A stretch of 64,000 nt of DNA from an uncultured Bacteroidales bacterium (GTDB lineage Bacteria > Bacteroidota > Bacteroidia > Bacteroidales > Paludibacteraceae), in assembly GCA_946187555.1 (NCBI GenBank), contig CAMHQP010000001.1:2651-66650 (forward strand). The letters are read 5' to 3'. The notes beneath the pieces are model-generated. The model searched no databases. It was not told the DNA's origin and saw only the letters and a program-made list of their open reading frames with translations. Shown one piece after another: positions 868 to 63,442 of this stretch (positions are counted from its first letter, which is position 1; every line of letters starts with the position of its first letter). A program made the position numbers and the translations under genes.

Positions 868-1206
868 ATGGCAGAGATTAGACCAATGGAGCTCATCAAG
901 AGTATGAGCAAGAAAGTGTGCATGCACAGCGATGTGTATTTCCGCACGAACAAACAGACCGGCAAGACGACGACCGGTAAGCTCTGTAATCCGAGTGAGA
1001 AGCCGGACAGTGCCAATCAGATTGCTGCGAAAGCGCGTTTTGCGAAAATAGTCGCGGCGGTACGTACGGTGCTGGCTGATCCGACGGAGAAGGCTAAACT
1101 GAAGGCTGAGTACAAGGCTCAGAACAAGATTGGTTCGCTGTTCGGCTACGCGATGCACAAGTTGAACGGTAACTACGATGCAAACGGTGATTTGATTAGT
1201 GATTAA
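868..1206 (+). CDS. hypothetical small basic protein (paralog family member)
   Basis: 112 aa. DVYFRTNKQTGK ... QIAAKARFAKIVAAV core matches ORFs 241 and 1558. Own promoter and conserved AT-rich leader. Confidence 0.6.
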   Translation: MAEIRPMELIKSMSKKVCMHSDVYFRTNKQTGKTTTGKLCNPSEKPDSANQIAAKARFAKIVAAVRTVLADPTEKAKLKAEYKAQNKIGSLFGYAMHKLNGNYDANGDLISD

Positions 1207-1227
1207 CGATTAGCGATTAGCGAGTTA
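1201..1227. repeat. 7-nt tandem array GATTAAC GATTAGC GATTAGC GAGTTA
   Basis: Read directly. It spans the stop of ORF 868 and the whole spacer to the ATG at 1227. The 20-mer 1208-1227 is identical to 20585-20604. Confidence 0.9.
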
Positions 1228-1427
1228 TGAGTAAGCAACAGATTATCAAGATCATCGTCTCGGTGCTCATCGCAGCACTCACGGCACTCGGAGCAGCGTT
1301 CGGACTGACGAGTTGTAACGTGACGCGGACGATTACGAACGAGAGCCAGTACTACCAACGGGGTGACACAAGCGTCGTCATCCAAACAAAAACCATCGAG
1401 ACTTACGACGCATCGCGCAAGCTCTAA
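1227..1427 (+). CDS. small putative lipoprotein / membrane-anchored protein
   Basis: 66 aa. N-terminal hydrophobic helix IIVSVLIAALTALGAAFGLTSC ends in a lipobox-like L-T-S-C. Confidence 0.5.
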   Translation: MSKQQIIKIIVSVLIAALTALGAAFGLTSCNVTRTITNESQYYQRGDTSVVIQTKTIETYDASRKL

Positions 1428-1557
1428 CTCGTGCGAATCGCGACCCCGTCACTCAAATAGCACTACGTTAGGCTCCCCGCTCTCCCCATTCGAGCAAAGC
1501 TCTTTGGGGGCCCCAATTAAATTATTAATCAACCATTAAACCTAAATTTTAACTATT

Positions 1558-1944
1558 ATGGGAAAAGTTAGTTATTCGCCGGGTATTGAGTTCGTACAGG
1601 GCTCCCTGGCAAAACCGAAGAAAGTAGATGGTCACAGTCACGGCGATTACCTGATTGGTACGCACCGCACCGCTCCGACCGAGAATCCGAACTGCACGCG
1701 TATCTACGTCCGCAAGGGTAACACCTACGGTCAGAACGTCAGCAAGTCGCAGGAGAGCATCGCAGCCCGTCTGCGTTTCAGTGCCGTCTCCACCGCGGTT
1801 AACACCCGCTCCAAAGACCTCACGAAGATCGCAGCCGACCGCGCAGCGTTCCTCGAGCAGAAGGATCTGCCGGGTGGCAAAAAGACCATGAAAGCATGGT
1901 ACTGGAAAGTAGAGGGTCAGGCCTACGACCAGCAACACGGTTAA
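1558..1944 (+). CDS. hypothetical small basic protein (paralog family member)
   Basis: 128 aa. ...SIAARLRFSAVSTAV core. The leader (1506-1557) is similar to the leader of ORF 868. Followed by a strong terminator. Confidence 0.6.
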   Translation: MGKVSYSPGIEFVQGSLAKPKKVDGHSHGDYLIGTHRTAPTENPNCTRIYVRKGNTYGQNVSKSQESIAARLRFSAVSTAVNTRSKDLTKIAADRAAFLEQKDLPGGKKTMKAWYWKVEGQAYDQQHG

Positions 1945-1949
1945 CGAAA

Positions 1950-1978
1950 GGAGCGCTTCGGCGCTTCTTTTTTTTATT
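1950..1978 (+). terminator. Rho-independent terminator
   Basis: GAGCGC-ttcg-GCGCTT hairpin followed by a run of T (1968-1975), 6 nt after the stop of ORF 1558. Confidence 0.75.
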
Positions 1979-3486: not shown

Positions 3487-6400
3487 ATGAAACGATTTCT
3501 GTACTTAACCATGGTGCTGGTGGTGGCAGCCATGAGTGCGACGACCGCGCAAGCCAATGATTACATGGAACATCCGGAGAACTATCAGATTTATGCTTCT
3601 GGTATCGACAAGATTCACTTCTCCATCCCCGTATGGGTGCATGGTGATTGGTACGAGCGCAGTTATTCGGCGCTGCCGGGCAGTCATTTCACCTACAAAG
3701 TAGGAACGGGTGACGAGGTGACGGTACTGAACTGGATAGCGCATGTAGTGCGCGACAACGACCGCGACAATGACAAGGGTACGTTGGCCGTGAAGTTCCA
3801 ACCGAACCAAGGTCAGTTGTACCTTACCTGTATGCACGACGGCATACGCAGGTCAGTGCTCGATGACGGCAACTGGAGCGACTGGCTGACGGTGAAGCAG
3901 AAACCGGCAGGCGGTTATGACCGCGTGACCATTCTTGAGTTCGACTGGTATCCGCCGCAGGCATTGGACGGCAAGGATTTCACCATCAAGATGTACTCGG
4001 AGTTTGATGACTTCGAGGAGATCATCAACGAGATAGCATATAGTTTATGCGACCCCTTCGACGATTACAGCAATATCGATTGCTATTATGAAGTGAATCC
4101 GGACTACAAGGTTAACTGGCAGGTAGATAACACGTTCAAGGGCAAGGAGCAGTTGGTAACGCCGACGCTGTTTGACCCCTATCTGTATCAGATGAGTGAG
4201 GACGGTTTGGCAGGCTACGGTTATGCCGCTATTCCGTATTCGCTGGGTGATCCTCCTATCAGTTATCGTCTGTCTATAGACAGTTCGTTGCACTCCGTGA
4301 CCGAGCAGGCGGGCAATATCTTCGTCATGACCACCGATACGCTGATCAAGGATGTATGCGCCAAGTTCATCGTTTGGCGTGACTCGGCGAACAATACTAA
4401 GGACAGTATTATGAGTACGAAGGTGGATGTGAAGCCCTACCACCGCATCCATGATTTTGTGGCGAAAGAAGAGACGGACTCGACCGATACCTACACGGGT
4501 GTCAACGTACTGAGTTGGACGGTGAAGAACCCGCTGTTGGAAGATATCGTGGAGGGCGATTATTTCGAAATTGTCCGTGCGACCGACACTGCATTCACCG
4601 ATGCGACTTCGTTGGCTGTTCTTCCGTTAGAGATCGACTCGTTAGGTCAATACAGCTACCGCGACGAAGACCGAAGTATCTCGACGGGTCATCTGGACGG
4701 CGACTCGCTGACGCTGCCGCTGGTCTATGCGCCGGACGAGTATTATGAGCTCAAGGATCAAAACGGTCAGACGATGTACCTTGTGAAACTGCAAATCCAG
4801 ACGGAAAAGACGGTTGTACCGTCTCTGCCGGTTTACTACCGCATCCGCCGTGCTTCATCCGCCGTATGGGGATGGCATCCGGACTTCACGGAGCAACGCA
4901 CGGTTTATAAGCATAACTTCCTTGCTCCGCTGGACAGTGTGCAACCTGAATACGAGAAAGATGCGGACTATGAGAATAACCACAAGGTCAATTTCCGTAT
5001 CGTTTTGAAGAACGAAGAGGTACCGACCATTCTGCCGTCCGAGGATACGTTCGAGTTCAGTTATACGCCTGTGCATTCCGCATGGGACAGTCTGCCTGCG
5101 GGCATTGACTCGGCGAGTGTGAATCCGGAGCTCTTTATGGTGGACACCTTGAAGGCGCAGTTGAAGGACACGCTGTATACCCATTTGAAAGCGGAGTACG
5201 AGGCCAATCCGTTCGGTAAGTGTATGTGGGATAAGACGGCAAACCTCATTCTTGTCAAGACCATCGAAGAGACGGGTGCGACCACCGAGAGTATCGTACC
5301 TCAGGACAGCATTCGTCGCCTGGAGAACGGCGATTGGGAAGCACGTTTCTCAGACATCGCAGACAAGGGCTGTACCCATTACAGTTATGCAGTACGTATC
5401 GACCAGAGCCATTCTGATCTGCATGTCCGTAACCCGCAAGAACAGTTGGCACCGATGACCATTACGGGTCCTGAACTCTACTTCGACGAGAGTGCGAAGA
5501 TCGTTGAGTTTACGGCTACGCAAGGCGATGCCCGCAGCGATCTCAAGCAAGGCGTATTGCTTAACTGGAAACCGTCTTCGTCGGCGGTAGATGAATATAT
5601 ACTCTGCCGTATTATGCAAGGCGGCAGTGGGGCGCTTGACACCCTTTATACGGGTATCGAGACGACGTTCATGGATATTACGGCACTGCCTGATGTACAC
5701 TATGAATATACCGTCAGCTCGTATTATTACTGTAACGGCAAATCGTCCTCGAACAGCGCCAAGACGGAAGGTTGGCGAACGAACTTCGCCGAGATAAGCG
5801 GTGCTATCCTGCTGCCGGACAATAGCGGTATGGCGGGTGTAATCGTAGCATTGCAAGACTCTACAGGTGCTGTGATCGACACGATCATCACCGGCGCGGA
5901 CGGAACGTACCGGTTCGACAGCCTGGAGTATTATGAGGTGGAATGTCATTACACCCCGATCGTGAAGCTTAGTTACACGCATTATGCTCAAGTGCAAGAT
6001 CCAAAACCGTATGTTCAGATTCGTATTCTGAATGAAGACGGCACGGTACAAAAAGACTGGGGTAAGATAGACGGTGGAACGTACGAATATGTGGTAGGTA
6101 CGAAATTTGAGATCAAGACCACTGAGGAAGGCAACGAGAATAAGGACAAGGTTTATCCCGTTGTGATCAAGGGTGACTGTGAGATCGTATGCGAGAACCA
6201 AGCCCATACCGAAGGGGAGATGCATATCGTTCCGAGGTTTGTGGTGAATGTCAAGGGCAACGGAGATTTTGTGCCGTGCAAGACGATCCAATCGAGTGCC
6301 AACTATGTGGTGATCCCGACACACGAGTACGGTGTGTTCTCGTTCAACTATACGGATGCCGGATCAGCTGCTATCACGCTATCCAAGGACAACGCATTAG

Positions 6401-9400
6401 CCGACCACATCGACTTTGTGAACACGAACTCAACGCGTCTAACGGGACGTGCACTGTATGAAAACACAACGATCCCGGTTGCGGGCGCTATGTTCCGACT
6501 GAACGGAGACACGATACGTCGTGGCGGAGCACCGCTGATGACCGGCACGGACGGTAATTTTGAGATGTCACTGACCAAAGGTCAGCCGTACACGCTGCAG
6601 ATCTTCAAGCCGAACCACACCTTCGCGCAAGACGGTTACTTCCAGATGGAAGAAGGTAAGGACACGTTTGCTATTACCGAACCGCTGGACGGCATCCGTT
6701 TCTACGACCAGACACGTGTTCGACTCGTAGGCCGTGTAGCCGGTGGTAACGACCAGCGCGACCTGCCGGAAGCATTCGGTCTGGGTAAGAACAACTTAGG
6801 TGACGACCTGCAGCTAGTATTCCAGTTGGAAGGCGATAACGTCGCGCATTTCGTTTATGACCCGAACGACCTGACCCGTGACACGATACAGCAGGTAGTG
6901 GATCACCTCGTTTATACCGGTGATACCTTAGCGCCTACGCGCAGTGTGGGTACGACGCATACCCTGTTTGAGAAAAAGCGCATCATCGTACAACCCGATC
7001 CCGAAACAGGTGAGTTTGAGGTCGATCTATGCCCCGTCAAATACAAGGTAACGCAGGCGACGGCGCGCGGTTATGCGACGCTCTTCACGGACGGAACGGG
7101 CAATGAGACCTTCGACCTGACCAATGCGCCGCTGAAGCATATCACAGATACCCTCAACGGTGACAGCGTATATTACAATGCCACTTATGACCGGATCTAC
7201 CATACGCCTATTCAAATCGAACTCAAGCAGAACCTGTACGGTCTGGAGCGGATGGCATACGGTGAACCGGAGATGGAGGTGAACGGTGCGAACCCGAACC
7301 AAATGGAGAAAGTGGCGCTTTATACTATCTCCGACGGCGAGGCAACCTACACCTTGGGTTATCCGGTATTCTACGATAGCCGCAAATACCAATTCAAGGC
7401 CAAGGCATACGAAGCCTTCTATTACAACAACGACCCGGCGGGTATTGAGGACATCGTGCCGCAGCGCGGTGGTAGTGTCATCATCCGCAACGGCATGCAC
7501 AGTGCGACCGAAGTGGAGCGCTATCCGCTTAATGAGAAGGGCGAGAACAACGTGATCTGGTTGACGGTGGACGATGTGGATGTAGAGCATGCCGGTACGG
7601 CACCGCTACGCAGCGTGAGCATCGCCCTCGAGGACGAAGGCAATATTGTGGAGACGAATGTGTTCAGCGGTTTCATTGCCGGTTCGGTACTGGAGGCTAA
7701 CAGTCTCCGTACCTCTCGCGGTGACATCCAGTTGCTGGACATCGTCCGTGACCCGGGTGGTGCCGGTTCATCTTCCTATGTGGAGAACGGCGCTGAATAT
7801 ACCTTCTCGTACGCGCAGACTGTAAAAGCAGAGTACGGTATCAAACTGTCACCTACATGGGGCACGAATCTCGATCAGTATATCGGTGCCTATACCGGTT
7901 CGCCGGTCGGCGGTTCGTTTATCGGCGAAGAAGTCAACACGCAGAAAGCTATTTCGTTTGACCTGCCTATCTCGCATAAGATCGACTACGGTCATTCGTA
8001 CACGTATAAGATGACGACCAACAACCGTATTGAGACCTCATCGGAGAGCAGTCCGACAGGTGTAGGCAGTCCGGCGGATGTGTTCTTCGGTACAGAGGTA
8101 GCGAACATCATCGGTAAGATGAAGACCATCAGCATCATCGACGACAGTCTGTATCAGATGTGTCAACCGTCGTTCAATGCGGGTACGATGTTGCTGCTCG
8201 CACAGGGTACGGACAGTGTGGGCAAGGCCTATTACCTCGTGACCGGACAGAAGATCTATGTCAGCTCGCTGCTGACCAACACCTTCACCTATTCGCAGTA
8301 CTATATCTGGAATACGCTTATCCCTCGTCTGGCGATGGATCGTCAGGACCTGCTCAAGAACTTTTCCGACTCCGTAGCTGCACAAGCGTATGCAGACGCA
8401 ACCGGTCGTCCTGCCTACTGGGCGATTGAGACCGATTCGTATATTAACGACACGATCCCCGTGGAGGCCTATCGTATGTTCACGCCGAACGATGGCGAAG
8501 CGTATACGGATGAGGTAGCAGAACTGAACAACGCCATCACCCGATGGTTGGAGATCCTGTATGCCAACGAGCGCGAGAAAGTGATTGCCCGTCAGAGCGG
8601 TATTAACTTAGGTACATACAGCGTTTCGTTCGGCAACTCGTTCTCGCATAGCGAGAGTTATTCCTACGAGTGTTCGTACAACGAGTACCCGCAGAGTTTC
8701 TTCGGCGAACGAGACCTGAAGAAGGCGGACCTCACCGCGTTAGGTACCTTGATGGCAAGCCTTATCAAATACGGCTGGGCAAGTTATAAAGGCAAGATAG
8801 GTACTTCTGCGATCAATGCAGCTCTCCAGTCCTACAGCAAGATTTTCGAAGAGAAGAAGGATGGAGAGAACAAGACCAACACTGTGGAAGCCAAAGCGGG
8901 TAACATGAAGTTCCATATGGGCTTCGGTGTCATCGCCAATACGGACAGAGACAAACGGATGACCACGACTGCCGCGATCAGTAAGTCGACTGGCTTTACC
9001 CTGGTAGCTGACCCGAAGGGCGATATCACGACCTCCGTGTACAGGGCGGAAGTGGACTCTGCATGGCGCGCTAACTCGTCTGCGGTTCTCGAGGAAGTGG
9101 AGCAAGACGGCAACGATGATATGCTCTACGGATCGTATGTCTTCTTCACCGAAGCAGGCGCAACGCTCTGTCCGCACGAGGAAGAAGAGAAGACCCTGCT
9201 GTACAATCCGGGAACAACGATCAATAATAATACCCTTTGGGTCTCTAAACCCGAGTTGACGGCCGACCGGTATGAGATAGCCAACGTTTCTTCGGACAAG
9301 CGTGCGTCGTTCCGCATCACCCTCTTTAACCAGGGTCAGATGGATGCCGGCGCAGCCGAGAACGGACAAGGATTCTACCTCTGTCTCAACGGCGTAAGCA

Positions 9401-12400
9401 ACCCGAATGGAGCCAAAGTATATGTGAACGGTGCGCCGCTTATTAATTCGATCTACTATTGGATACAGCCGAGTACGCCGATCACGCAGACTATTGAGGT
9501 TGAGCGCGGTACGGTGGACGATTACAATCTGTCCTTCTCGCTCTATTCGGAGCACTGCGCCACCACGTCGGCGGATATGAATATCGGCGTACACTTCCTG
9601 CCGATATCCACCGATGTAGCTATCGCGGCACCGCATCAGAACTGGGTAATGAATACGCTCTCACCGCGTGACTCGACGGGCTATTACCTGCCGATAACGA
9701 TTGACGGATTCGATATTCACCATAAGAACTTCGACCATATCGAGTTCCAGTACAAACTCAGTTCCGAGAGTGATGAGAAATGGGTCAACCAGTGCTCGTT
9801 CTACGCGCAAGACAGTCTGTATGAGCTCGCTACGGGCAACAAAGCGATGATAGAGAACGGACGCATCACGCCGTTCCGCTTCTACGGCGAACGTGACCCG
9901 ATGGAGCAGAAATACGACTTGCGTGCCGTCTCCTTCTGCCGCTACGGATCAGGCTTTGTATCGAAGGCTTCGCCTGTCATCAGCGGTATGAAAGATACAC
10001 GTCCGCCGGTAGTGTTCGGCGAACCCGAACCCGCCAATTCGATCCTTGGGGTAGGAGACAATCTCAAACTCCGGTTCAACGAAGCGATAGCGGGTAACTA
10101 CCTCGATGAGGACAATAACTTCCAAATCACCGGTGTCACCAACGAAAGCGGGCTCGCGGCCTCTACCGCGCTCCATTTCGACGGTAACGCGGTAGCCTAC
10201 ACGAAAGTGAGACGCGACATATCGGAGAAATCATTCACCATCGATGTGATGATTCGTCCTTCTGTGCCGAATAACCGCGCGAAGGATATGATCCTCTTCG
10301 AAGCGACGAAAGACCAATTGACCAAACAGTTCATCCTGACCAAGGATAACCGGTTGCAACTGCTCACTGTCACGCCAAGGGCTACCGTCGGCAGAACATC
10401 CAAGCCTATCGGGGACATCTTGGCGCTCACACGTGTGCTGTGCGTTTACGATAAGACTACGTCCGATATGCATTTCTATGTCGGTTCGGAAGATTTCACA
10501 GACAGAACGATTGGAGACTCCACCACGCAGGCTATGCCGAGCAGCAGTGCGTACTTCAAGTTTGGTACTACCTACGACGGCGATATGCTCGAGGCGCGTA
10601 TCTGGACCAAAGCGCTGACGCTCGAACAGATCGTTGCCACCGCCAACCATTCGCTCACCGGCTATGAGCGCGAACTGCTGACCTACTACCGCATGGACGA
10701 AGGAAAGGGAGATGCTATCACCGACTATGCCCACGGAGCCACCCTCTATCTCGACGGCTGCAGTTGGAACAAGCAAAAAGGCTTCTCGCTCCGGTTTGAC
10801 GGTACCAATACGGCGCAACTCGACGGCAATCTGATAGGACGCTCGACTACTTACGACGAGTCCATCCTATTCTGGTTCAATGCCGAGTCAGACGGTACGC
10901 TCTTCAGTGCCGGATCGACCATCATCGCTATCGAAGACGGCCATCTCGTCTTCCAAAGCGGAGACCGGAAATTTGAACTCAAAAATCAAGCATGCACCGA
11001 TGGTGCTTGGCATCATTTCGTACTCACTATCAGCCGTACGTATAACAACGCTGCGCTTTTCCTTGACGGCCAACTCTATCAGTACTTTGATGCGCTGTCG
11101 CTCGAAGGAATCACCGGTGCGATGTACCTCGGTGGTAACGGGTTCAAGGGACATATAGACGAGTTCGTTATCTTCGAGCAGGCGCTGCCCAAATCGCTCG
11201 TGGAAGTGTACGAAGAGATTGCCCTGACCGGTGACGAGATGGGGCTGATGGCATATCTGCCGTTCGAAGAGCAATACCTTAACCCGAGCGGTGTACTGCA
11301 ACTCCGCTTCTCCGGCAACGACAAGCGTATTTACAAAAACCCGGAGACCGGCGAAGTGATTGACAAGATCGTTCCGCTCGTCATCAGCGATGTCACCGGC
11401 ATGGAAGACGAAGACAACAATGCGCCTGTCAAATCGCATGGCTTGCTTACGAAGTTGAATTTCAACTGGTCGTTCAACAACAACGAGTTGATGATCAACA
11501 TACTCAATCGCGATTATGAGGTGAACAAACAGTCGATCTATGTCTCCGTACGGGATGTAGAGGATCTGAACGGCAACCCCATGACATCGCCTGTTACATG
11601 GACGGCATTCGTGGACCGCAACAGCCTCAAGTGGTCGTCCAAACAACTGACCATCAAAGCAGATGACGGAACGAACAACAACCCTGAAACGGAGGTTCGG
11701 ATCATTAACCAAAGCGGTAAACACCATACCTACAGCATTGAATCGCTGCCATCGTGGCTTACCGTAGATACCGAGTACGGCTCTATTGATCCGACGGAAG
11801 AAATAACCGTCACGCTCACGTTCGACCATCAGATACCGGTAGGCGAGTACAGCGATCTCATCTATCTGACGGACGAAAACGGACTCAGCGAACCGCTCAA
11901 AGTGGACTTTACCATCGAGGCTATCTGTCCTTGGGATCCGGCGGAGGGACGTCAGTTCGACCAATCGATGTCACTCTGCGGACAAGTAGTACTGGCGGAT
12001 GAAAGCGGAGTGATTACACAAGACACATCCAACGACGATATCATTGCTGCTTTCTGCAACGGCGAACTCGTCGGTACGGCGAACAACACCTTCGATAACA
12101 CCGCCAATAAGTCCTATGTCTATCTGACTATCTACGGCAAGGCGGAGAATGAGAACAAACCGATCACATTCAAACTATGGCAGGCTTCGACCGGAAAAGT
12201 CTTTAACCTGACTACCGAACGTGTTATCCAATACCACGAGAACGGCATCGAGGGTTACGCCCCGGCTCAACCGATTATCCTCAGCGCATACGCAGGCTTG
12301 TCACAGCAGATTGCAATCAAGCAAGGATGGAACTGGATCAGTCTCAACCTCAAACCTGTCGGAAACGGCATCCTGAACACCACGCTTCCGGCTACACAAG

Positions 12401-13299
12401 GTTGGAACGACGAGGATCTGATCAAGTCTTCCGTCTCGCGTACCTTCGCGCAGTTCGTCAAAAACGACACTGCCAATAAATGGATAGGTACACTCAACCG
12501 TATTAACTATCACAATATGTATATGGTCTATACGCACGAAGCGAATCCGGAATTGATGGTGGATGGAACACGACTGAACGACGAAGAACGGGTGCTTACC
12601 GTAAGCAAGGGCTGGAACAGCATCGCGTGTCTGATCGATGACGTAACGCTCGTTTCCGAAGCATTGGCTGACTATTATGACAATGCCACCGAAGGAGATC
12701 TCATCAAGTCCAAGAATGCCGTCGCTGTCTTCTCGCAAGATGGCAAATGGGTCGGTTCGCTCACCCACCTCCATCCGGGTGAAGGATACCTCTTCCGCCG
12801 TTATGGAGAAGGATCGGTGCCTCTCACCTTACAGCAAGGCAGTCAGTCTAACCCCGCTCCGAAGAGAACTCCCGCTGTTGAGCATCCGGAGTTTACTAAC
12901 CCGAATGCTGCAACGAATATGACGATGATCGCTATGATTAATGATGGAATGAGCGCGACTGCGTCGCTCAATGATGTAAATGATGTATTGAAGGTGTATG
13001 TGGGCGACGAGTTAGCCGCTGTAGCAGAGCCGATTGACTCGCTGTACTTCTTGACAATCCAGAGCGATCAGATCGGAGAACTCCGCTTTGAGATGAACGG
13101 TCAATCGCTTACACCAATGACCTATGACCAATCACCAATCACCATTGGCTATTCCGCTGACAGCCACCACGGCTCGCTCCGCGCACCGATCGTACTCAAG
13201 CCGGCTGAATCTGACCGACCGTACAAGATCATCGAAAATCAACACGTAGTAATAATCCGAAACAATGAAAAATATGATGTTACTGGAAAGAAATTGTAA
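3487..13299 (+). CDS. giant secreted/cell-surface multidomain protein (3270 aa) with LamG-like, carboxypeptidase-regulatory-like, FN3-like and Ig/BACON-like modules
   Basis: Uninterrupted 9.8-kb ORF with signal peptide MKRFLYLTMVLVVAAMSATTAQA. By-eye modules: FN3-like (~5550-5730); CarboxypepD_reg-like ISGAILLPDNSGMAGVIVALQDSTGAVIDTIITGADGTYRFDSL (~5790-5935) and a second (~6437-6625); two LamG/concanavalin-like modules with MLEARIWTKALTLEQI and GHIDEFVIFEQALPKSLV (~10170-10640, ~10780-11210); Ig/BACON-like (~11680-11925); two copies of a ~110-aa module (~11926-12290, ~12890-13210); short C-terminal tail motif. Confidence 0.85.
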   Translation: MKRFLYLTMVLVVAAMSATTAQANDYMEHPENYQIYASGIDKIHFSIPVWVHGDWYERSYSALPGSHFTYKVGTGDEVTVLNWIAHVVRDNDRDNDKGTLAVKFQPNQGQLYLTCMHDGIRRSVLDDGNWSDWLTVKQKPAGGYDRVTILEFDWYPPQALDGKDFTIKMYSEFDDFEEIINEIAYSLCDPFDDYSNIDCYYEVNPDYKVNWQVDNTFKGKEQLVTPTLFDPYLYQMSEDGLAGYGYAAIPYSLGDPPISYRLSIDSSLHSVTEQAGNIFVMTTDTLIKDVCAKFIVWRDSANNTKDSIMSTKVDVKPYHRIHDFVAKEETDSTDTYTGVNVLSWTVKNPLLEDIVEGDYFEIVRATDTAFTDATSLAVLPLEIDSLGQYSYRDEDRSISTGHLDGDSLTLPLVYAPDEYYELKDQNGQTMYLVKLQIQTEKTVVPSLPVYYRIRRASSAVWGWHPDFTEQRTVYKHNFLAPLDSVQPEYEKDADYENNHKVNFRIVLKNEEVPTILPSEDTFEFSYTPVHSAWDSLPAGIDSASVNPELFMVDTLKAQLKDTLYTHLKAEYEANPFGKCMWDKTANLILVKTIEETGATTESIVPQDSIRRLENGDWEARFSDIADKGCTHYSYAVRIDQSHSDLHVRNPQEQLAPMTITGPELYFDESAKIVEFTATQGDARSDLKQGVLLNWKPSSSAVDEYILCRIMQGGSGALDTLYTGIETTFMDITALPDVHYEYTVSSYYYCNGKSSSNSAKTEGWRTNFAEISGAILLPDNSGMAGVIVALQDSTGAVIDTIITGADGTYRFDSLEYYEVECHYTPIVKLSYTHYAQVQDPKPYVQIRILNEDGTVQKDWGKIDGGTYEYVVGTKFEIKTTEEGNENKDKVYPVVIKGDCEIVCENQAHTEGEMHIVPRFVVNVKGNGDFVPCKTIQSSANYVVIPTHEYGVFSFNYTDAGSAAITLSKDNALADHIDFVNTNSTRLTGRALYENTTIPVAGAMFRLNGDTIRRGGAPLMTGTDGNFEMSLTKGQPYTLQIFKPNHTFAQDGYFQMEEGKDTFAITEPLDGIRFYDQTRVRLVGRVAGGNDQRDLPEAFGLGKNNLGDDLQLVFQLEGDNVAHFVYDPNDLTRDTIQQVVDHLVYTGDTLAPTRSVGTTHTLFEKKRIIVQPDPETGEFEVDLCPVKYKVTQATARGYATLFTDGTGNETFDLTNAPLKHITDTLNGDSVYYNATYDRIYHTPIQIELKQNLYGLERMAYGEPEMEVNGANPNQMEKVALYTISDGEATYTLGYPVFYDSRKYQFKAKAYEAFYYNNDPAGIEDIVPQRGGSVIIRNGMHSATEVERYPLNEKGENNVIWLTVDDVDVEHAGTAPLRSVSIALEDEGNIVETNVFSGFIAGSVLEANSLRTSRGDIQLLDIVRDPGGAGSSSYVENGAEYTFSYAQTVKAEYGIKLSPTWGTNLDQYIGAYTGSPVGGSFIGEEVNTQKAISFDLPISHKIDYGHSYTYKMTTNNRIETSSESSPTGVGSPADVFFGTEVANIIGKMKTISIIDDSLYQMCQPSFNAGTMLLLAQGTDSVGKAYYLVTGQKIYVSSLLTNTFTYSQYYIWNTLIPRLAMDRQDLLKNFSDSVAAQAYADATGRPAYWAIETDSYINDTIPVEAYRMFTPNDGEAYTDEVAELNNAITRWLEILYANEREKVIARQSGINLGTYSVSFGNSFSHSESYSYECSYNEYPQSFFGERDLKKADLTALGTLMASLIKYGWASYKGKIGTSAINAALQSYSKIFEEKKDGENKTNTVEAKAGNMKFHMGFGVIANTDRDKRMTTTAAISKSTGFTLVADPKGDITTSVYRAEVDSAWRANSSAVLEEVEQDGNDDMLYGSYVFFTEAGATLCPHEEEEKTLLYNPGTTINNNTLWVSKPELTADRYEIANVSSDKRASFRITLFNQGQMDAGAAENGQGFYLCLNGVSNPNGAKVYVNGAPLINSIYYWIQPSTPITQTIEVERGTVDDYNLSFSLYSEHCATTSADMNIGVHFLPISTDVAIAAPHQNWVMNTLSPRDSTGYYLPITIDGFDIHHKNFDHIEFQYKLSSESDEKWVNQCSFYAQDSLYELATGNKAMIENGRITPFRFYGERDPMEQKYDLRAVSFCRYGSGFVSKASPVISGMKDTRPPVVFGEPEPANSILGVGDNLKLRFNEAIAGNYLDEDNNFQITGVTNESGLAASTALHFDGNAVAYTKVRRDISEKSFTIDVMIRPSVPNNRAKDMILFEATKDQLTKQFILTKDNRLQLLTVTPRATVGRTSKPIGDILALTRVLCVYDKTTSDMHFYVGSEDFTDRTIGDSTTQAMPSSSAYFKFGTTYDGDMLEARIWTKALTLEQIVATANHSLTGYERELLTYYRMDEGKGDAITDYAHGATLYLDGCSWNKQKGFSLRFDGTNTAQLDGNLIGRSTTYDESILFWFNAESDGTLFSAGSTIIAIEDGHLVFQSGDRKFELKNQACTDGAWHHFVLTISRTYNNAALFLDGQLYQYFDALSLEGITGAMYLGGNGFKGHIDEFVIFEQALPKSLVEVYEEIALTGDEMGLMAYLPFEEQYLNPSGVLQLRFSGNDKRIYKNPETGEVIDKIVPLVISDVTGMEDEDNNAPVKSHGLLTKLNFNWSFNNNELMINILNRDYEVNKQSIYVSVRDVEDLNGNPMTSPVTWTAFVDRNSLKWSSKQLTIKADDGTNNNPETEVRIINQSGKHHTYSIESLPSWLTVDTEYGSIDPTEEITVTLTFDHQIPVGEYSDLIYLTDENGLSEPLKVDFTIEAICPWDPAEGRQFDQSMSLCGQVVLADESGVITQDTSNDDIIAAFCNGELVGTANNTFDNTANKSYVYLTIYGKAENENKPITFKLWQASTGKVFNLTTERVIQYHENGIEGYAPAQPIILSAYAGLSQQIAIKQGWNWISLNLKPVGNGILNTTLPATQGWNDEDLIKSSVSRTFAQFVKNDTANKWIGTLNRINYHNMYMVYTHEANPELMVDGTRLNDEERVLTVSKGWNSIACLIDDVTLVSEALADYYDNATEGDLIKSKNAVAVFSQDGKWVGSLTHLHPGEGYLFRRYGEGSVPLTLQQGSQSNPAPKRTPAVEHPEFTNPNAATNMTMIAMINDGMSATASLNDVNDVLKVYVGDELAAVAEPIDSLYFLTIQSDQIGELRFEMNGQSLTPMTYDQSPITIGYSADSHHGSLRAPIVLKPAESDRPYKIIENQHVVIIRNNEKYDVTGKKL

Positions 13300-13714
13300 A
13301 ATCTTGGCTCTTTGTTCCTTGTTCCTTGTAGCCCTCGTTGGCTGCAAGGACAAAGAGCCCGAAAACCCGTATGTTAATCCGGGTACCACGGAAAACCCGC
13401 AGTGGAAAATCACGGTAGACACTACCGATATGACCTCCTCCATGACCGCCATCGTTCGGGTGAGTTTCACGCAATCAGAAGGCACACTCGCTGCCTTTAT
13501 GGGCAACGAATGCTGCGGGATAGGAGAGTATACAGAGGGGCTGTATTGGCTTTATATCTCGCCCGCTTCGGAACAAAGTAATGTCCAATTAAAATTCTAT
13601 TCCCCGGACTTGAAGCGGATCTTCGTTGCCGGAGATACCTTCCCTTACGTTAACCATGGTCATCAAGGCTCGGTCAATAATCCTGCTACACCAACTTGGA
13701 TCGTAGCGCAATAA
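13265..13714 (+). CDS. lipoprotein consisting of one copy of the giant protein's C-terminal ~110-aa module
   Basis: 149 aa. Lipobox LVALVGC. SMTAIVRV ... GTLAAFMGNECCGIG ... GLYWLYISP ... VQLKFY aligns with two modules in the giant protein. Start overlaps the giant gene's end by 35 nt. Confidence 0.65.
   Translation: MKNMMLLERNCKILALCSLFLVALVGCKDKEPENPYVNPGTTENPQWKITVDTTDMTSSMTAIVRVSFTQSEGTLAAFMGNECCGIGEYTEGLYWLYISPASEQSNVQLKFYSPDLKRIFVAGDTFPYVNHGHQGSVNNPATPTWIVAQ
13312..13332. repeat. 7-nt tandem array TTGTTCC TTGTTCC TTGTAGC
   Basis: Read directly. Lies in the signal-peptide coding part of ORF 13265 (LCSLFLVAL). Confidence 0.85.
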
Positions 13715-14413: not shown

Positions 14414-15622
14414 ATGAAAAAGCTTTTGATTATTATGATGACCGCTCTCAGTGTAGCGGTCTCGGCGCAGACGGACACGACGGCTGTGCCCAAAGACACC
14501 ACCGAAGGATTTCGTTTCACGACCATCGATAGCGTTGCTATCAGTCCGGTCAAAGACCAGAACCGCAGTTCGACCTGCTGGGCGTTCTCCACGCTCGGCT
14601 TCCTCGAGTCCGAAGTGTTGCGTATCAAAGGTAAACTGGTCGATTTCAGTCGTATGTTCGTAGTGAGCAAGACGATGATCGACCGCGCGACCTACTGCGT
14701 GCGTCTGTATAACGAGCCGAGGTTCGCCCCCGGCGGTAGTGCATACGACGTGATCTACTGCATGGAGCACTACGGTCTCGTGCCGCAAGAAGCGATGCCC
14801 GGTATTCGCTACGGCTGGACGGCGAACGATACCCTACCCGTGCATTCCGAACTCGACAAAGTGGCAGCCGGTTACCTCAAAGGCCTCAGCGGACTGAAAC
14901 GTATCAGTCCTGTGTGGCGCGAGGGACTGCAGGCTATCTACGATACCTATCTGGGCAAGTGTCCGGAGTCGTTTGAGTACGAAGGCAAGACCTACACCCC
15001 GCAATCATGGGTGAAGAGTCTCGGGCTCAACGCCGACGATTACGTGTCCATCACCAGCTATACCCACCATCCGTTCTATGAGCGTTTTGCACTCGAGGTG
15101 CCGGATAACTGGCGCATGGATCAGATGTACAACGTGCCTCTTGACGAGATGATGCGTATCATCGATAATGCGCTCGCGAACGGTTATACGCTGGCTTGGG
15201 GTGCAGACGTGAGTGAGATCGGTTTTACCCGCAAGGGTATCGGTGTCGTGCCGGACGATGATCACGGTGCCGACATCACCGGTAGCGATATGGCCAAATG
15301 GGTAGGCATGTCCAACGATAAGAAGAAAGAGGAACTGACCAAGAAACCGCTGCCCGAGAAGACGATCACACAGCAGATGCGGCAGGATGCGTTCGATAAC
15401 TGGGAGAACACCGACGACCACGGCATGCAGATCTTCGGTACGGCACACGACCAGAACGGCAAACGGTATTACATGGTTAAGAACTCCTGGGGCACCATGC
15501 GCTCGGACTACAAGGGTATATGGTACGTGAGCGAGGCGTTTATGCAATACAAGACCAATGATATCCTTGTGCACAAGAACGCTATCCCGAAAGATATTCG
15601 TAAAAAACTCGGTATCAAGTGA
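14414..15622 (+). CDS. pepC: C1-family cysteine peptidase (aminopeptidase C / bleomycin-hydrolase-like), secreted
   Basis: 402 aa. Signal peptide, active-site context QNRSSTCWAFS, C-terminal ...NSWG... motif typical of papain-fold C1B enzymes. Confidence 0.75.
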   Translation: MKKLLIIMMTALSVAVSAQTDTTAVPKDTTEGFRFTTIDSVAISPVKDQNRSSTCWAFSTLGFLESEVLRIKGKLVDFSRMFVVSKTMIDRATYCVRLYNEPRFAPGGSAYDVIYCMEHYGLVPQEAMPGIRYGWTANDTLPVHSELDKVAAGYLKGLSGLKRISPVWREGLQAIYDTYLGKCPESFEYEGKTYTPQSWVKSLGLNADDYVSITSYTHHPFYERFALEVPDNWRMDQMYNVPLDEMMRIIDNALANGYTLAWGADVSEIGFTRKGIGVVPDDDHGADITGSDMAKWVGMSNDKKKEELTKKPLPEKTITQQMRQDAFDNWENTDDHGMQIFGTAHDQNGKRYYMVKNSWGTMRSDYKGIWYVSEAFMQYKTNDILVHKNAIPKDIRKKLGIK

Positions 15623-19197: not shown

Positions 19198-19201
19198 AAA
19201 A

Positions 19202-19233
19202 TTTGCATATATAAAAAATTATTCGTAATTTTG
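19202..19233 (+). promoter_or_regulatory. Bacteroidetes-type promoter (TTTGCATAT ... TAATTTTG)
   Basis: TTTG 19202-19205 and TAATTTTG 19226-19233, 20-nt spacer, 18 nt before the ATG at 19252. Confidence 0.65.
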
Positions 19234-19251
19234 CACGCAAAATTGTTTGGT

Positions 19252-23493: not shown

Positions 23494-24071
23494 TGGCAAA
23501 TAAATACCTGGACACCGACTTGTTGGATCGCGCAATTGTTTTCGCAGTAAAGGCGCACCATAACACGGAGCGGAGAGGCAAGGGTTTTCCGTATATCGTG
23601 CATCCGATGGAGGCCGTGGAGATTGTGGCTACTATCACACCGGATCAGGAACTATTGGCCGCAGCGGCTTTGCACGACACCATCGAAGATACAGACGTGA
23701 CGGTAGAGCAGATCCGTGAGGCATTCGGCGAGCGCATTGCAGAGTTGGTACATGCGGAGAGTGATCAGTTCACCGAGGGCGTCAGTGAGGAGGATAGTTG
23801 GCATGATCGTAAGCAAGCTGCTATCAATCGTCTGGCTGCCGCTCCGTACGATGCGAAGATAGTAGCGATGGGGGATAAGTTGAGTAACATGCGGGCTATC
23901 TGGCGTGACTATCAGGTCAAAGGCGATGCGTTATGGAATATCTTCCACGTCAAGGACAAAGCGTCACATGAATGGCATTATCGCGGGTTGGCTGCTTCGC
24001 TCAAAGAGTTAGAGGGCACATTTGCCTATCAAGAATTTGCACGATTAATAGATGATGTTTTTGCACATTGA
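23493..24071 (+). CDS. HD-domain hydrolase of the SpoT/Mesh1 (small alarmone hydrolase) type
   Basis: ATG at 23493 overlaps the upstream TAA (TAATG). AVKAHHNTERRGKGFPYIVHPMEAVEIV ... AAALHDTIEDT matches the (p)ppGpp hydrolase HD_4 signature. 192 aa. Confidence 0.75.
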   Translation: MANKYLDTDLLDRAIVFAVKAHHNTERRGKGFPYIVHPMEAVEIVATITPDQELLAAAALHDTIEDTDVTVEQIREAFGERIAELVHAESDQFTEGVSEEDSWHDRKQAAINRLAAAPYDAKIVAMGDKLSNMRAIWRDYQVKGDALWNIFHVKDKASHEWHYRGLAASLKELEGTFAYQEFARLIDDVFAH

Positions 24072-47905: not shown

Positions 47906-47933
47906 TGTCCAATGTCAAATATCCAATGTCCAA
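47906..47933. repeat. 7-nt tandem array TGTCCAA TGTCAAA TATCCAA TGTCCAA filling the adaptor-pump spacer
   Basis: Read directly. 28 of the 31 intergenic nt between the stop (47934-36) and the start (47900-02) on the minus strand. Confidence 0.9.
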
Positions 47934-50017: not shown

Positions 50018-50049
50018 AGGTATTAATATTTATTTTTCAAAATCGGGCG

Positions 50050-50081: not shown

Positions 50082-50220
50082 CGTATGCCATTCTTTTCGC
50101 GATTTTTGTGCCCGTTTTCTCTAAAAAAATGCATTTTTTCTCCGTCTGTTTCGTCTGGATTGAATCCAGACACCTATAGTATTATATACTATGTATATAA
50201 TATAGATCTCGTTCAAAACG

Positions 50221-50264
50221 TTAGATATTAGTTAGATATTCCTTAGATATAAGTTAGTCATTAC
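50221..50264. repeat. four 11-nt direct repeats TTAGATATTAG TTAGATATTCC TTAGATATAAG TTAGTCATTAC
   Basis: Read directly, in the divergent pfkA / TonB-receptor control region. The period is about one helical turn. Confidence 0.85.
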
Positions 50265-61500: not shown

Positions 61501-61860
61501 GGCTGCATTATACTCATCCACGGAGATCTTCTTGCCGATATCCTCTTTGGTGATACCCAGCATTTTCTCTACGCCTAACTCAACCGGCAGACCGTGGGTG
61601 TCCCAACCGGCCTTACGGCGTACCTGATAACCCTGCATCGTTTTGAAACGGCAGAACGTATCCTTGATGGTACGCGCCATGACGTGGTGAATACCCGGCA
61701 TTCCGTTTGCCGAAGGAGGACCTTCAAAGAACAAAAACTGCGGATGACCTTCGCGTGTAGATACACTTTTTTCAAATAGATTCTCTTGTTCCCACTGCGC
61801 CAGAACCTCGCGGCTGAGCGCAGGTAAATCCAATCGTTTGTACTCGTTAAATTTTTTCAT
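58588..61860 (-). CDS. ileS: isoleucine--tRNA ligase
   Basis: The start at 61860 (MKKFNEYKRLDL...) follows a promoter; the track ORF has a spurious 110-codon extension. HIGH-type PSANGMPGIHH, KMSKR (GNKMSKRLGN), CP1 editing domain. 1090 aa. Confidence 0.95.
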   Translation of the reverse strand: MKKFNEYKRLDLPALSREVLAQWEQENLFEKSVSTREGHPQFLFFEGPPSANGMPGIHHVMARTIKDTFCRFKTMQGYQVRRKAGWDTHGLPVELGVEKMLGITKEDIGKKISVDEYNAACRREVMKYTKEWTNLTKQMGYWVDLDDPYITYDNKYIETLWYLLKELYKKGYLYKGYTIQPYSPAAGTGLSSHELNQPGCYRDVKDLTCTAKFHLKDGRYIIAWTTTPWTLPSNTALCVGPKIDYVEIALESGEHIILAEARLSAYFENAEIVARYKGADLVGLEYDPLFPWVNPGKGAFRVIPGDYVTTEDGTGIVHIAPTFGADDKKVGDAAGVPGLYMQTKDFGPRPMVDFTGKYWKIEDLDEAWVKDNVNTELYGKYAGRFVKNAYDPNLTDKDESLDLHLCMEMKADGRLLKTEKHVHSYPHCWRTDKPVIYYPLDSWFIQSTKAREQMIALNKTINWQPESTGTGRFGQWLNNLNDWNLSRSRYWGTPLPIWRTEDGKEEICIGSIAELFDEIEKSVKAGFMQANPWPKHKVGDYNKANYDPSVIDLHRPYVDAIVLVSPSGKPMKRELDLIDVWFDSGAMPYAQNHYPFENADAPRTADFISEGVDQTRGWFFTLHAIHTMIEGTVAYKNVISNGLVLDKNGNKMSKRLGNAVDPFGALDTYGADPVRWYMLTNSSPWENLKFDPEGVDEVRRKFFGTLYNTYGFFALYANVDNWQPSIGSGQYSEIDRWILSKLNSLVKEVTEAYEAYEPTKAGRAISDFVQDDLSNWYVRLNRKRFWGGEMDADKQAAYETLYTCLKTVAQLMAPNAPFYADRLYRDLTDETVHLSDWPNANEALIDLNLERQMYLAQQATSTILSLRKRAEKNVRQPLQKAVIPTPDKETTDALLHVADLIKSEVNVKELVIVPAEQSEIKLVKKIKPQFKVLGKKVGGQMKALAEAIGKMSQDDIAKMEADGQFTLLDYTLVPEDVEIITEDMPGWLVANNGILTIALDIELTDELIEEGIARELVNRIQNLRKSSGLEITDRIQVVIEDREEIHNAVLHCNEYIAGQVLATSLQLAKDVQGESVEMDGYNVNIKIEKA

Positions 61861-61899
61861 TATAGTGTGTTTAATCGTTTGCAAGCCGTAAAACGGCTG

Positions 61900-61931
61900 C
61901 AAAGGTACTGCTTTTTTTTTAGATATGCAAA
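61900..61931 (-). promoter_or_regulatory. ileS promoter (minus strand TTTGCATAT ... TACCTTTG)
   Basis: The reverse complement of 61900-61907 is TACCTTTG, and of 61928-61931 is TTTG. 20-nt spacer. Confidence 0.7.
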
Positions 61932-61957
61932 AAAATCTGCACTTTTGATGCAGATTT
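61929..61957 (-). terminator. Rho-independent terminator of pepD
   Basis: On the minus strand AAATCTGCA-tcaaaag-TGCAGATTT is followed by TTTTTT. A second hairpin GTAGTTTG-aaa-CAAACTAC (61970-61988) overlaps the pepD stop. Confidence 0.7.
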
Positions 61958-61984
61958 CCTTGTTTACAGGTAGTTTGAAACAAA

Positions 61985-63442
61985 CTACAAAGCTTGCAGT
62001 GTTTGGCAAAGCCAGCGGTAACAACGCTCCGTCGAAGGAATAGAGAGACGCTCTTGAGGCGAGTGAACTCCGTACATCTGCGGACCGATAGAAACCATGT
62101 CGAGGTAAGGATATTTCTCCAAGAACAAACCGCACTCCAGACCGGCATGAATAGCGAGTACCTGCGGTTCGGACTTGAATAAATCGACATAGGCTTTCTT
62201 TACTACTTCCAAAAGCGGAGAGTTAGGGTTCGGTGCCCAACCCGGGTATCCGTCTCCGTGCGTCACTTCGTCACACGCCAACGAGAGGGCTTGTTCTACC
62301 GCCCATTTGAGGTGATGTTTAGCCGGTTCTTTAGAGGAGCGCTGGGACGTATTTACCTCGATGAAATCGGCACTTTTTTCACTTTTCATCTTAATGGAAG
62401 CGAGGTTAGTTGAGGTCTCCACAAGACCGGGCATTTCCTGACTCATAGCAATCATTCCGTGCGGACATTCGCAGAGCGCCATGATAAGACGATAAGCTTT
62501 GTCGGCAGGCACAAATATCTCGGGCATGTCGCAGGTCTCCAGTTCGAGACGCATGTCCTTCTCCACTTCGCCGAAGACGCCTTCCATCTGTGCTACAAAA
62601 TGATTCCACTCAATACGGATCTGCTCTTTGTACGCCATAGGAATAGCGATGACGGCTTCCGCTTCGCGGGCGATCGCATTGCGGAGGTTACCACCGTTGA
62701 TAGAGGCCAACTGAATCTCGGTCTGCGGCCAGATACGTGCAAGGAACCACACAATGAACTGATTCGCATTCGCGCGACCCTTGTTGATATCATCTCCGGA
62801 GTGACCGCCCATGAGTCCACTGACGGATAGGCGAACTCCGATTCTTTCACCTTTAAACTTTAAACTTTCAACTTTAACCGGTTCATAGTGCATCTTCGCT
62901 AATGTGTCGATTCCACCGGCACAACCGATGAAGATCTGACCGTCGTCTTCGGAGTCCAGGTTGATGAGTCGTTTGGACTGCAGCATGCCGTCTTGCAGTT
63001 TCATTGCGCCGGTGAGACCGGTCTCCTCGTCCACTGTGAAAAGGCACTCGATAGCCGGGTGTTGCAGGTTGAGGTCGGTGATTGCAGCAAGCGCCATAGA
63101 GATACCGATGCCGTTATCTGCACCGAGGGTTGTTCCCTTCGCTTTGAGCCATTCACCGTCCACATAGGTCTGAATAGGATCGGTCATGAAGTCATGTTGT
63201 ACGTCGCCGTTTTTCTCGCAAACCATGTCCATATGCGCCTGAAGGATAACGCCTTCATGATTCTCGTAACCTGGCGTAGCGGGCACACGCATGATAACGT
63301 TCATCGCCTCGTCAGCCACACATTCGATGTGATGAGCTGCTGCAAAATCCTGCAACCACTTACTGATTCGCTCCTCGTGTTTGGACGGACGAGGTACTTG
63401 ATTGATCTGCGCAAAAATGTCAAAAACTGCTTTCGGTTCCAT
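61985..63442 (-). CDS. pepD: aminoacyl-histidine dipeptidase (M20C, PepD)
   Basis: 485 aa. N-terminal FAQINQVPRPSKHEERISKWL, HMDMV, TLGADNGIG and VDEETG blocks. Confidence 0.9.
   Translation of the reverse strand: MEPKAVFDIFAQINQVPRPSKHEERISKWLQDFAAAHHIECVADEAMNVIMRVPATPGYENHEGVILQAHMDMVCEKNGDVQHDFMTDPIQTYVDGEWLKAKGTTLGADNGIGISMALAAITDLNLQHPAIECLFTVDEETGLTGAMKLQDGMLQSKRLINLDSEDDGQIFIGCAGGIDTLAKMHYEPVKVESLKFKGERIGVRLSVSGLMGGHSGDDINKGRANANQFIVWFLARIWPQTEIQLASINGGNLRNAIAREAEAVIAIPMAYKEQIRIEWNHFVAQMEGVFGEVEKDMRLELETCDMPEIFVPADKAYRLIMALCECPHGMIAMSQEMPGLVETSTNLASIKMKSEKSADFIEVNTSQRSSKEPAKHHLKWAVEQALSLACDEVTHGDGYPGWAPNPNSPLLEVVKKAYVDLFKSEPQVLAIHAGLECGLFLEKYPYLDMVSIGPQMYGVHSPQERLSIPSTERCYRWLCQTLQAL
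62844..62878. repeat. 7-nt tandem array CTTTCAC CTTTAAA CTTTAAA CTTTCAA CTTTAAC
   Basis: Read directly. Inside pepD on the minus strand, encoding ...VKVESLKFKGE.... Confidence 0.9.

Follow-up and report, generated by a model that had tools for sequence, protein, structure and literature searches.

A stretch of 64,000 nucleotides (the window) from an uncultured Bacteroidales bacterium (GenBank assembly GCA_946187555.1, contig CAMHQP010000001.1, positions 2,651 to 66,650; G000:C1:2651-66650 in the notation used here) carries tandem arrays of 7-nt units, some in spacers and others in the middle of housekeeping genes, where the gain or loss of a single unit would shift the reading frame. The question raised by this locus is how such arrays come to lie in genes and how they are kept there. 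G000 is a 1.57-Mb assembly of 100 contigs with a G+C content of 50% and a completeness of about 70%. A search with its TtcA protein among species-representative genomes placed the lineage as a rumen Paludibacteraceae/Bacteroidales metagenome-assembled genome (MAG); the TtcA matches (64-92% protein identity) were only to MAGs of uncultured rumen or gut Bacteroidales and 'Paludibacteraceae'.

The heptamer arrays are, on balance, best read as a dispersed family of short tandem-repeat blocks of this genus and family, which would spread by block-wise copying of DNA, pass through a filter of frame and stop codons, and change by slippage only secondarily. The family is dominated by period 7, includes periods 8, 10, 11 and 16 as well, and is of the same kind as the heptameric simple sequence repeats (SSR) of Xanthomonas and the short tandemly repeated repetitive (STRR) sequences of cyanobacteria.

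Arrays were called with Tandem Repeats Finder (TRF) in the window and in the whole G000 genome, and those of the window were also read by eye. An earlier reading, made from the sequence only, had listed seven heptamer loci with 3-6 copies each. All seven were recovered by TRF within a few bases, although the array at 13312, with 2.6 copies, falls under that range; one array of the window (13113-13144) was absent from the list. The heptamer arrays are:

1194-1223, plus strand: GATTAGC, 4.3 copies; overlaps the stop codon (1204-1206) of the open reading frame (ORF) at 868-1206 and extends through the entire spacer up to the ATG at 1227
13113-13144, plus strand: ACCAATG, 4.6 copies; C-terminal part of the 3270-aa ORF at 3487-13299, peptide LTPMTYDQSPITIG
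13312-13329, plus strand: TTGTTCC, 2.6 copies; signal peptide LALCSLFLVALVGC of the lipoprotein at 13265-13714; the weakest of the arrays listed earlier
16285-16309, plus strand: ATTGGAG, 3.6 copies, perfect; acyltransferase gene at 15619-16551, residues ~223-231 (IGDWRLEID)
20569-20605, plus strand: GCGATTA, 5.1 copies; PP2C/SpoIIE domain, encoding AISDEGLAISELE
26643-26685, plus strand: AAAATCA/GAAATCA, 5.6 copies; TtcA residues ~107-121 (PKSEIKNQKSKIEN), just ahead of the CFLC motif
47906-47934, minus strand: TTGGACA-type (TGTCCAA on the plus strand), 4.1 copies; the entire 31-nt spacer from the stop codon of an RND adaptor to the ATG of the pump
62851-62877, minus strand: GTTKAAA (CTTTAAA on the plus strand), 3.9 copies; M20 peptidase (PepD-like), residues ~188-197 (PVKVESLKFKGE)

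The gene contexts proposed earlier (acyltransferase, PP2C/SpoIIE, TtcA-type PP-loop, RND adaptor/pump spacer, M20 peptidase) agree with the gene calls on strain contigs and with Pfam. On those contigs the arrays at 13312, 16285, 20569, 26643 and 62851 lie within called genes, and the array at 13113 falls in a called gene that runs to the end of its contig.

Enrichment, block size and unit families

Chance expectation was taken from Markov-4 simulated genomes (two for the TRF counts). Regarding exact arrays of at least 2.5 copies, G000 holds 109 of period 7, whereas 0.4 were expected; periods 6, 8 and 9 yielded 36, 27 and 4, respectively. When all TRF arrays were counted, the numbers were 309 for period 7, 50 for period 6, 101 for period 8 and 155 for period 9, with 25-28 in the Markov-4 control. 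Among TRF arrays of at least three copies, 263 were of period 7, compared with 24, 62, 31 and 27 of periods 6, 8, 9 and 11, and the control yielded one array at period 7, three at period 8 and one at period 9. The excess of period 7 over expectation and over periods 6, 8 and 9, which the sequence-only reading had supposed, therefore held in the genome-wide check.

The enrichment extends over the genus and family, the genomes compared being kin and not independent samples. The TtcA loci of 80 relatives contain 138 period-7 arrays in 512 kb of flanking DNA, and 78 such arrays were found in 410 kb of G004, which belongs to the same genus and is the closest relative of G000 (flanks ~88-95% identical; 75% complete). 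Eight genomes of other Bacteroidales families gave eight arrays (at least three copies) in 284 kb, so that a density of 1-2 arrays per 10 kb in the genus and family stands against ~0.3 per 10 kb, about sixfold lower, in the eight others. Period 7 is still the commonest period in these low-density families. The process had been called lineage-specific, and the strong enrichment in the genus and family supports this; the kind of repeat, however, is not unique to the lineage but is that of the known heptameric SSR/STRR class (PMC4692102, PMC4679880). An origin from, or membership in, the cyanobacterial STRR sequences was ruled out: the relatives are rumen Bacteroidales, and 112 units are in use.

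The arrays have a standard size. Copy number has its mode at four-point-something (4.x; 135 of 308 arrays) and length at 31 nt, and a frequent exact form is (AATNNNN)4AAT, e.g., (AATCACC)4AAT. The average match within arrays is 85%, with 19 of 263 being perfect. G-quadruplex formation, offered as the cause of the four-unit preference in Xanthomonas and Nostoc (PMC4692102), was ruled out as its cause here, since only 61 of the 308 arrays have GGG or CCC in the unit and the other 247 keep the four-unit, 31-nt mode.

That each locus has a different unit is correct for the window, but not genome-wide, where the 308 arrays are built from only 112 canonical units with a few dominant families. The GGTTACR family accounts for 63 arrays in unrelated genes (peptides VTGYGLQVTG or VTGDGLQVT), AATCACC for 16, and AATCGCT, AATCTCC and AATCCCT for 10 each. 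The A-rich strand contains AA in 89% of the units, compared with 55% of random heptamers. The families are species-specific, with GGTTACR abundant in G000 and AATCACC in G004 (Fisher p = 5e-4). They are also locally clustered: among neighbouring arrays within 600 nt, unit and strand match in 12 of 64 pairs, whereas 3.2 would be expected (p < 0.0005), and nearby arrays of one family have longer exact strings in common. The arrays at 1194 and in the PP2C gene have the identical 20-mer GATTAGCGATTAGCGAGTTA.

The period-8 arrays of G000 (62 with at least three copies; e.g., TTCTCTAA, 10.5 copies, and AATTCCCT) look like heptamer units that are one base longer; 29% of them lie fully inside ORFs, compared with 63% of the period-7 arrays.

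Changes between strains and the reading frame

Strain variation was followed on independent metagenome contigs obtained by exact-protein match, 94-99% identical to the window; contigs were few per site (1-9 for the period-7 arrays; L-numbers denote individual contigs or loci of strains or relatives). On these contigs no change in unit number was found at the period-7 arrays 16285, 20569, 26643, 47906 and 62851. Apart from whole-block variants, the five arrays are identical base for base, imperfections included: the acyltransferase array in L113, the PP2C array in five contigs, the TtcA array in four, the adaptor/pump spacer in nine and the PepD array in L182. For the array at 1194, an exact-protein match to the ORF at 1558-1944 found no record of a strain copy.

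The variants that do occur concern whole blocks. At 47906, L129 (94.8% identical) has an empty site, TAA-GCT-ATG, which is 28 nt, or four units, shorter. Where the window reads TAG-AT-ATG, from the AsmA stop codon to the next ATG (M3 peptidase), L183 and L184 carry an AAGTGAA-type array of 25 nt. A GGTGAAT-like patch is found only in L113, at window position 23776 within an HD hydrolase gene, where 12 nt are gained and the adjoining bases are replaced. In L124 (94.9% identical) the 13113 site holds non-repeat sequence and the array is missing. In L117 (95.7% identical) a GGTTACG-type array stands in register in place of the PP2C array, at unchanged length and between essentially identical flanks, by which the peptide AISDEGLAISELE becomes KVTGEGLQVTGLD; three other genes of G000 contain arrays that agree with the incoming one at 31 of 32 nt. 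A flank-pattern scan of JGI metagenomes for further alleles of the PP2C site yielded a single matching contig.

The same was seen between species. When 44 arrays of G004 (at least three copies) were mapped to G000, 12 were conserved, 13 corresponded to another array and 19 to no clear array. The replacing arrays have another unit, sometimes on the opposite strand or with a period of 8-16, and the length difference at replaced sites ranges from -15 to +20 nt, with 0 in four cases; at coding sites it is a multiple of 3 and never 21. At the PP2C site, G004 has a GGTGAAT array that is 6 nt shorter and agrees in 32 of 33 nt with an array at another site in G000. Changes in unit number do occur among close TtcA loci (+21, -21 and +14 nt).

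About half of the arrays, 150 of 309 by approximate ORF calls, lie deep in genes (≥150 nt into an ORF and ≥30 nt short of its end) and are spread over 127 of 1245 ORFs; the remainder overlap ORF ends or are intergenic. The ORFs of G000 are a greedy longest-ORF approximation that overcalls coding sequence at 93.5%, and on this basis array density is roughly several-fold higher outside deep coding sequence. Among the 131 arrays outside deep coding sequence, 57 are within 10 nt upstream of the start codon (ATG) of a long ORF (≥100 aa) or overlap that codon.

Since 7 and 3 have no common factor, a heptamer array gives the same 7-residue repeat in any frame. For the same reason three or more units are read in all phases, and any stop trinucleotide within the unit lands in frame. 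Deep in-gene arrays combine a stop-free sense unit with a stop-containing antisense unit in 70 cases and show the reverse in 18 (binomial p = 2e-8). Where the unit has stops on both strands, one copy is edited: several CCGTAAC arrays have TCA in place of TAA, and in the PP2C array one unit is changed from TAG to GAG (GAT TAG to GAT GAG), by which the frame stays open. The stop-free sense bias and the edited units indicate that the in-gene arrays are translated and are under purifying selection for an open frame. The suggestion that arrays are retained only when frame-neutral was thus borne out as a filter, the sense strand being stop-free and the length differences between relatives at coding sites being multiples of 3 (filled and empty or replaced sites differ by 0, 3, 6, 9, 12, 15, 27, 30 or 36 nt). 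The accompanying rule that three units make 21 nt was not, as arrays typically consist of four units plus 3 nt and the coding differences are not multiples of 21.

Ortholog alignments of TtcA, PepD, PP2C and the acyltransferase place the in-gene arrays in variable loops without conserved residues, in agreement with lineage-specific insertion or replacement. The TtcA segment between VRDTEIGE and NPCFLCSWYRRK ranges from ~6 to 50 residues across 80 orthologs, many of which build it from other heptamers (CAAATCA, AATCGAA, AATCACC, AATCTCC, AGTCGAG, AGGCGAA and others); in the AlphaFold model of TtcA (mean pLDDT 79.6), residues 102-120 are predicted as coil, with pLDDT <50 at 112-117. The PepD array lies within a hypervariable loop between DTLAKMHY and the GGHSGD strand, in which relatives hold other arrays. 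The PP2C loop is ~6-7 residues longer than in more distant orthologs. Orthologs of the acyltransferase align only to residue 223 and have a different, longer linker beyond.

As an observation on the latter gene (15619-16551), ~23 linker residues found in ten orthologs (…DDEHYEENF…NPPAPF…) are missing, and the heptamer array stands at the deletion point.

Copying, slippage and S23p cassettes

In G003, another relative, the PepD loop contains repeats of GTCAGCGAAGCGGTCTGTC, which are the 16-nt arm unit of an S23p cassette of the same genome. When searched as a 19-mer, this unit (GGTCTGTCAGCGAAGC) gave 58 matches, whereas a reversed control gave 0. The sites lie next to two S23p genes, in intergenic inverted pairs or hairpins, and in frame in ORFs of 316-796 aa, where they encode GLSAKRSVS-type peptides. 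Since dozens of sites cannot each have produced the same 16-nt unit on their own, at least this family spreads by copying and enters genes in frame. The unit is absent from G000. A GLSAKRSVS-type peptide was also seen in the TtcA loops of L049, L055 and L059.

S23p (PF05635) resembles Avd, the accessory protein of diversity-generating retroelements (DGR) (PMC10053308), and PF05635 has been described as occurring within cas operons. Of 15 genomes of the genus, 13 have one to six S23p genes that score above the cut-off, and most of the other Bacteroidales families sampled have such genes as well. Those of the relatives (120-150 aa) are mostly bracketed within ~100 nt by inverted arrays of period 7, 8, 10 or 16, which at the inspected loci (L190-L225) have 4-6 units, are mutual reverse complements and use a unit of their own in each cassette. 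G000 has one sub-threshold S23p/Avd-like four-helix-bundle gene (C34:883-1455, 190 aa; PF05635 at 27.7 bits), with inverted CTAGG-containing arrays of ~10-nt period on either side. Unlike the cassette arms, of which the G003 unit is the one also found in frame inside genes, the heptamer arrays of G000 are solitary: no inverted pair was found among 64 neighbour pairs in G000, compared with 11 direct pairs at the same unit-match threshold, by which a role as paired hairpin arms in that genome was ruled out. Many S23p cassettes of the relatives (G001-G022, with other families in G013-G020) lie less than 3 kb from contig ends.

Block-wise copying is favoured by the standard block size, the whole-block polymorphism, the same-length in-register replacement, the species-specific families and the G003 family. 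By this route an array would be laid down, or an old tract overwritten, as one block of ~25-35 nt, typically four units plus 3 nt. The donor may be a second array of that genome, in many cases one close by, copied as DNA, presumably by template switching during replication or by short-patch ectopic conversion. Selection would then keep blocks in spacers next to stop and start codons, and in genes only in permissive surface loops or linkers, where survival would require a change in length divisible by 3 and a sense strand that lacks stops from the outset or through editing; the 7-residue repeat obtained in any frame could make heptamer blocks unusually tolerable there. Slippage in unit number would be secondary (±1-2 units in spacers, ±3 units elsewhere). 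Any role of S23p/Avd-like cassettes is conjectural as well. It is conceivable, but judged unlikely, that short-period arrays, including the heptamer/STRR arrays of several phyla, are mobile ends or 'solo arms' of such cassettes, block-copied at the DNA level independently of reverse transcriptase, overwriting old sites and lying in frame in ~1/10 of the genes of this lineage.

Several observations weigh against copying or against the link to the cassettes. A donor-recipient pair was never caught in the act. Recurrent internal variants (CAG for CGG, GAC for TAC, TAA to TCA) are explicable by convergent selection on the peptide or on stops, and they are weakened as proof of copying, since selection that depends on the frame can produce them anew (removal of stops, CGG to CAG, TAC to GAC). 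The strain-level array of L183/L184 resembles its own flank (AATAGAT versus ATAGTGA), as local seeding predicts. No canonical S23p gene was found in the assembled part of G000 (70% complete) or G004 (75% complete), the units of five S23p cassette arms of G007, a further relative, match none of its solitary arrays, and S23p copy number shows no clear relation to array density across families in small samples. Moreover, the gene calls of G000 are approximate, and the related genomes are not independent.

The principal alternative is plain replication slippage of locally arising heptamers, i.e., neutral microsatellites from which selection removes only the out-of-frame states. It has precedent: heptamers are the commonest members of the 'long SSR, 5-11 nt unit' class of Mrazek et al. 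(2007) in many bacteria, for which slippage related to the polymerase footprint has been proposed (as cited in PMC4692102 and PMC4679880). The indels of 14 and 21 nt inside arrays of close relatives, the +11 nt of a period-11 array (see below), the flank-like new array of L183/L184 and the top rank of period 7 even in low-density families are as slippage would have them. Unit-by-unit growth of a heptamer array in mid-gene, however, needs frameshifted intermediates, and the arrays in 127 ORFs cannot pass through states of +7 or +14 nt; there is, moreover, no repeat to slip on while only one unit exists. The copy-number distribution has its peak at 4 instead of declining from 2, the strains show gain, loss and replacement of whole blocks with no unit-number polymorphism of period 7, and coding-site differences are not multiples of 21. 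Species-specific families, and the dispersal of a 16-nt unit to dozens of sites, also argue against it, as does the presence of MutS_I and MutL_C in five of five genomes, G000 included, by which slippage through a repair defect is opposed and a mismatch-repair-deficient mutator lineage ruled out. Slippage, one of the two generating processes named in the sequence-only reading, is therefore not retained as the main generator, and as a full account of the arrays it appears unlikely.

Less probable still is selection of the arrays as functional cis-elements, either as unstructured leaders or spacers for the Shine-Dalgarno-independent initiation of Bacteroidota or as binding sites for a protein that recognises a 7-nt register of RNA or DNA. 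Comparable proposals exist for TAACTGA repeats (PMC4679880), and the 57 of 131 arrays at or just upstream of an ATG are consistent with it. The 12 arrays conserved between G000 and G004 are 94.8% identical, compared with 91.3% for their flanks, but the difference falls short of significance (p = 0.1). Random genomic segments fold more strongly than the arrays (-4.4 versus -1.8 kcal/mol), but the folding energy of the arrays equals that of composition-matched shuffles, so that specially unstructured RNA was ruled out. Both orientations occur upstream of genes (48 versus 39), the units are highly diverse, half of the arrays lie in protein loops, and orthologous sites in close strains hold unrelated units or are empty with no visible consequence.

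Writing by a retroelement, in which an Avd-like S23p protein and a reverse transcriptase would copy an RNA template as in DGR mutagenic homing or telomerase-like addition, is very improbable. The resemblance of S23p to Avd, the inverted arrays that bracket S23p genes in relatives and the in-register, same-length PP2C replacement, which resembles templated homing, speak for it. RVT_1, however, is missing in four of five genus genomes searched, including ones 99% and 96% complete, the PP2C replacement has no adenine-specific pattern, and G000 and G004 lack a canonical S23p gene in their assembled parts; membership among the DGR was ruled out on the first two grounds. Contingency loci, i.e., phase variation by which the gain or loss of units switches genes on and off, are hardly credible, as the arithmetic (one unit more or less shifts the frame) and the overlap of some arrays with start or stop codons are met by a lack of unit-number polymorphism at the period-7 arrays of the window across independent metagenome assemblies, by the imperfection of most arrays and by hosts that are housekeeping genes hit in mid-ORF.

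Other repeats, known systems and significance

Beside the heptamer arrays, the window contains the following repeats of other periods:

3751-3774, plus strand: 12-nt in-frame duplication, two copies, in the giant ORF
12970-12987: 9-nt duplication, two copies, of the same kind as that at 3751-3774
36532-36575, plus strand: period-9 array of the CTAGGGTAC type, in frame in an lpxB-like gene (SRVPRVPRSPGIL)
50220-50257, no strand assigned: period-11 array of GTTAGATATTA, 3.5 copies, intergenic

The codon-multiple repeats reported earlier at 3751-3774, 12970-12987 and from 36532 onward were all found by TRF, and the first two are ordinary codon-multiple duplications. The array at 36532-36575 belongs to a second array family built on CTAGG with periods of 8-10, also seen on G000 contigs C3, C31, C60, C74, C76 and C99; bacterial DNA normally contains few CTAG sites. 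The period-11 array at 50220 is the only array of the window with single-unit copy-number polymorphism (+11 nt in L129 and L132). Nearby, at 50040, some strains with identical PfkA carry a GC-rich insert of 27-28 nt (CGTACGATGCGCGTACGCACGCACACC) upstream, and the TonB-receptor leader next to the 50040 and 50220 sites is only ~85% identical between those strains. Ahead of the PP2C gene, an AT-rich spacer of ~50 nt (19197-19250, AAAATTTGCATATATAAAAAATTATTCGTAATTTTGCACGC...) is repeated, with 80-94% identity, across many contigs of G000 and of relatives and resembles the Bacteroidota promoter consensus (TTTG ... TAnnTTTG).

Regarding known systems, the heptameric SSR families of Xanthomonas (GGGAATC) and Nostoc (GGGGA(C/T)T) prefer four units, lie near gene ends and vary between close relatives (PMC4692102, Rehm et al. 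2015). The arrays of G000 are like them in being dispersed and strongly over-represented heptamers, with about four units and with extensive length and sequence variation at one intergenic site between close relatives; by the rough estimate above, they may also be denser in non-coding DNA and by start and stop codons. Several units, such as AATCCCT and AATCNCC, differ by a single step from AATCCCC, the reverse-strand reading of the Nostoc unit. They differ in belonging to an uncultured rumen lineage of Bacteroidota, in using many unit families instead of one, in having few G/C triplets and in the strain-level block replacement documented here. Whereas the Xanthomonas and Nostoc repeats are under-represented in coding DNA, about half of the G000 arrays are in frame in genes. 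TAACTGA repeats are known from Beggiatoaceae, cyanobacteria and five Bacteroidetes including Paludibacter propionicigenes (MacGregor 2015, PMC4679880). With these and the STRR sequences of heterocystous cyanobacteria the G000 arrays share the heptamer, 2-6 copies, many sites, a frequent position a few nt upstream of start codons and the lack of a known mechanism, but instead of one or few fixed heptamers in mostly intergenic positions they show 112 units, species-specific families and massive in-gene insertion.

A literature search turned up no account of heptamer arrays within genes of Bacteroidales, and none of repeat arms at PF05635 genes. The phylum, the many unit families, the in-frame share of ~50%, the block replacement at strain level and a family common to S23p arms and in-gene arrays are new here. 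Palindromic elements of Rickettsia (RPE) were reportedly found by Ogata and colleagues in 2000 to be inserted in frame in protein-coding genes; they are likewise dispersed within ordinary genes, keep the frame and occupy surface-exposed, tolerant parts of proteins, but are palindromic and ~100-150 bp long, unlike tandem arrays of ~30 nt, so that the resemblance is one of working and not of membership.

To our knowledge, heptamer repeats have been known in bacteria since about 1990 with no mechanism, the usual explanation being slippage or, for G-rich units, G-quadruplexes. The present lineage is a natural test of slippage: about half of its arrays lie in essential-type genes where stepwise slippage is forbidden, and arrays still arise, keep their four-unit size and are exchanged for other unit families between near-identical strains, which argues for block-wise copying. 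The 16-nt family of G003 links in-gene arrays to the arms of S23p/Avd-like cassettes. For annotation, ~10% of ORFs carry repeat-encoded loop inserts of ~7-14 residues (e.g., VTGDGLQVT, NHQSPIT), which are lineage noise and not conserved motifs, and the presence or absence of arrays and their unit type are good strain markers for rumen Bacteroidales. If the arrays should prove to be solo arms of such cassettes, the loops of the proteome would be continuously re-tiled by repeat-encoded peptides.

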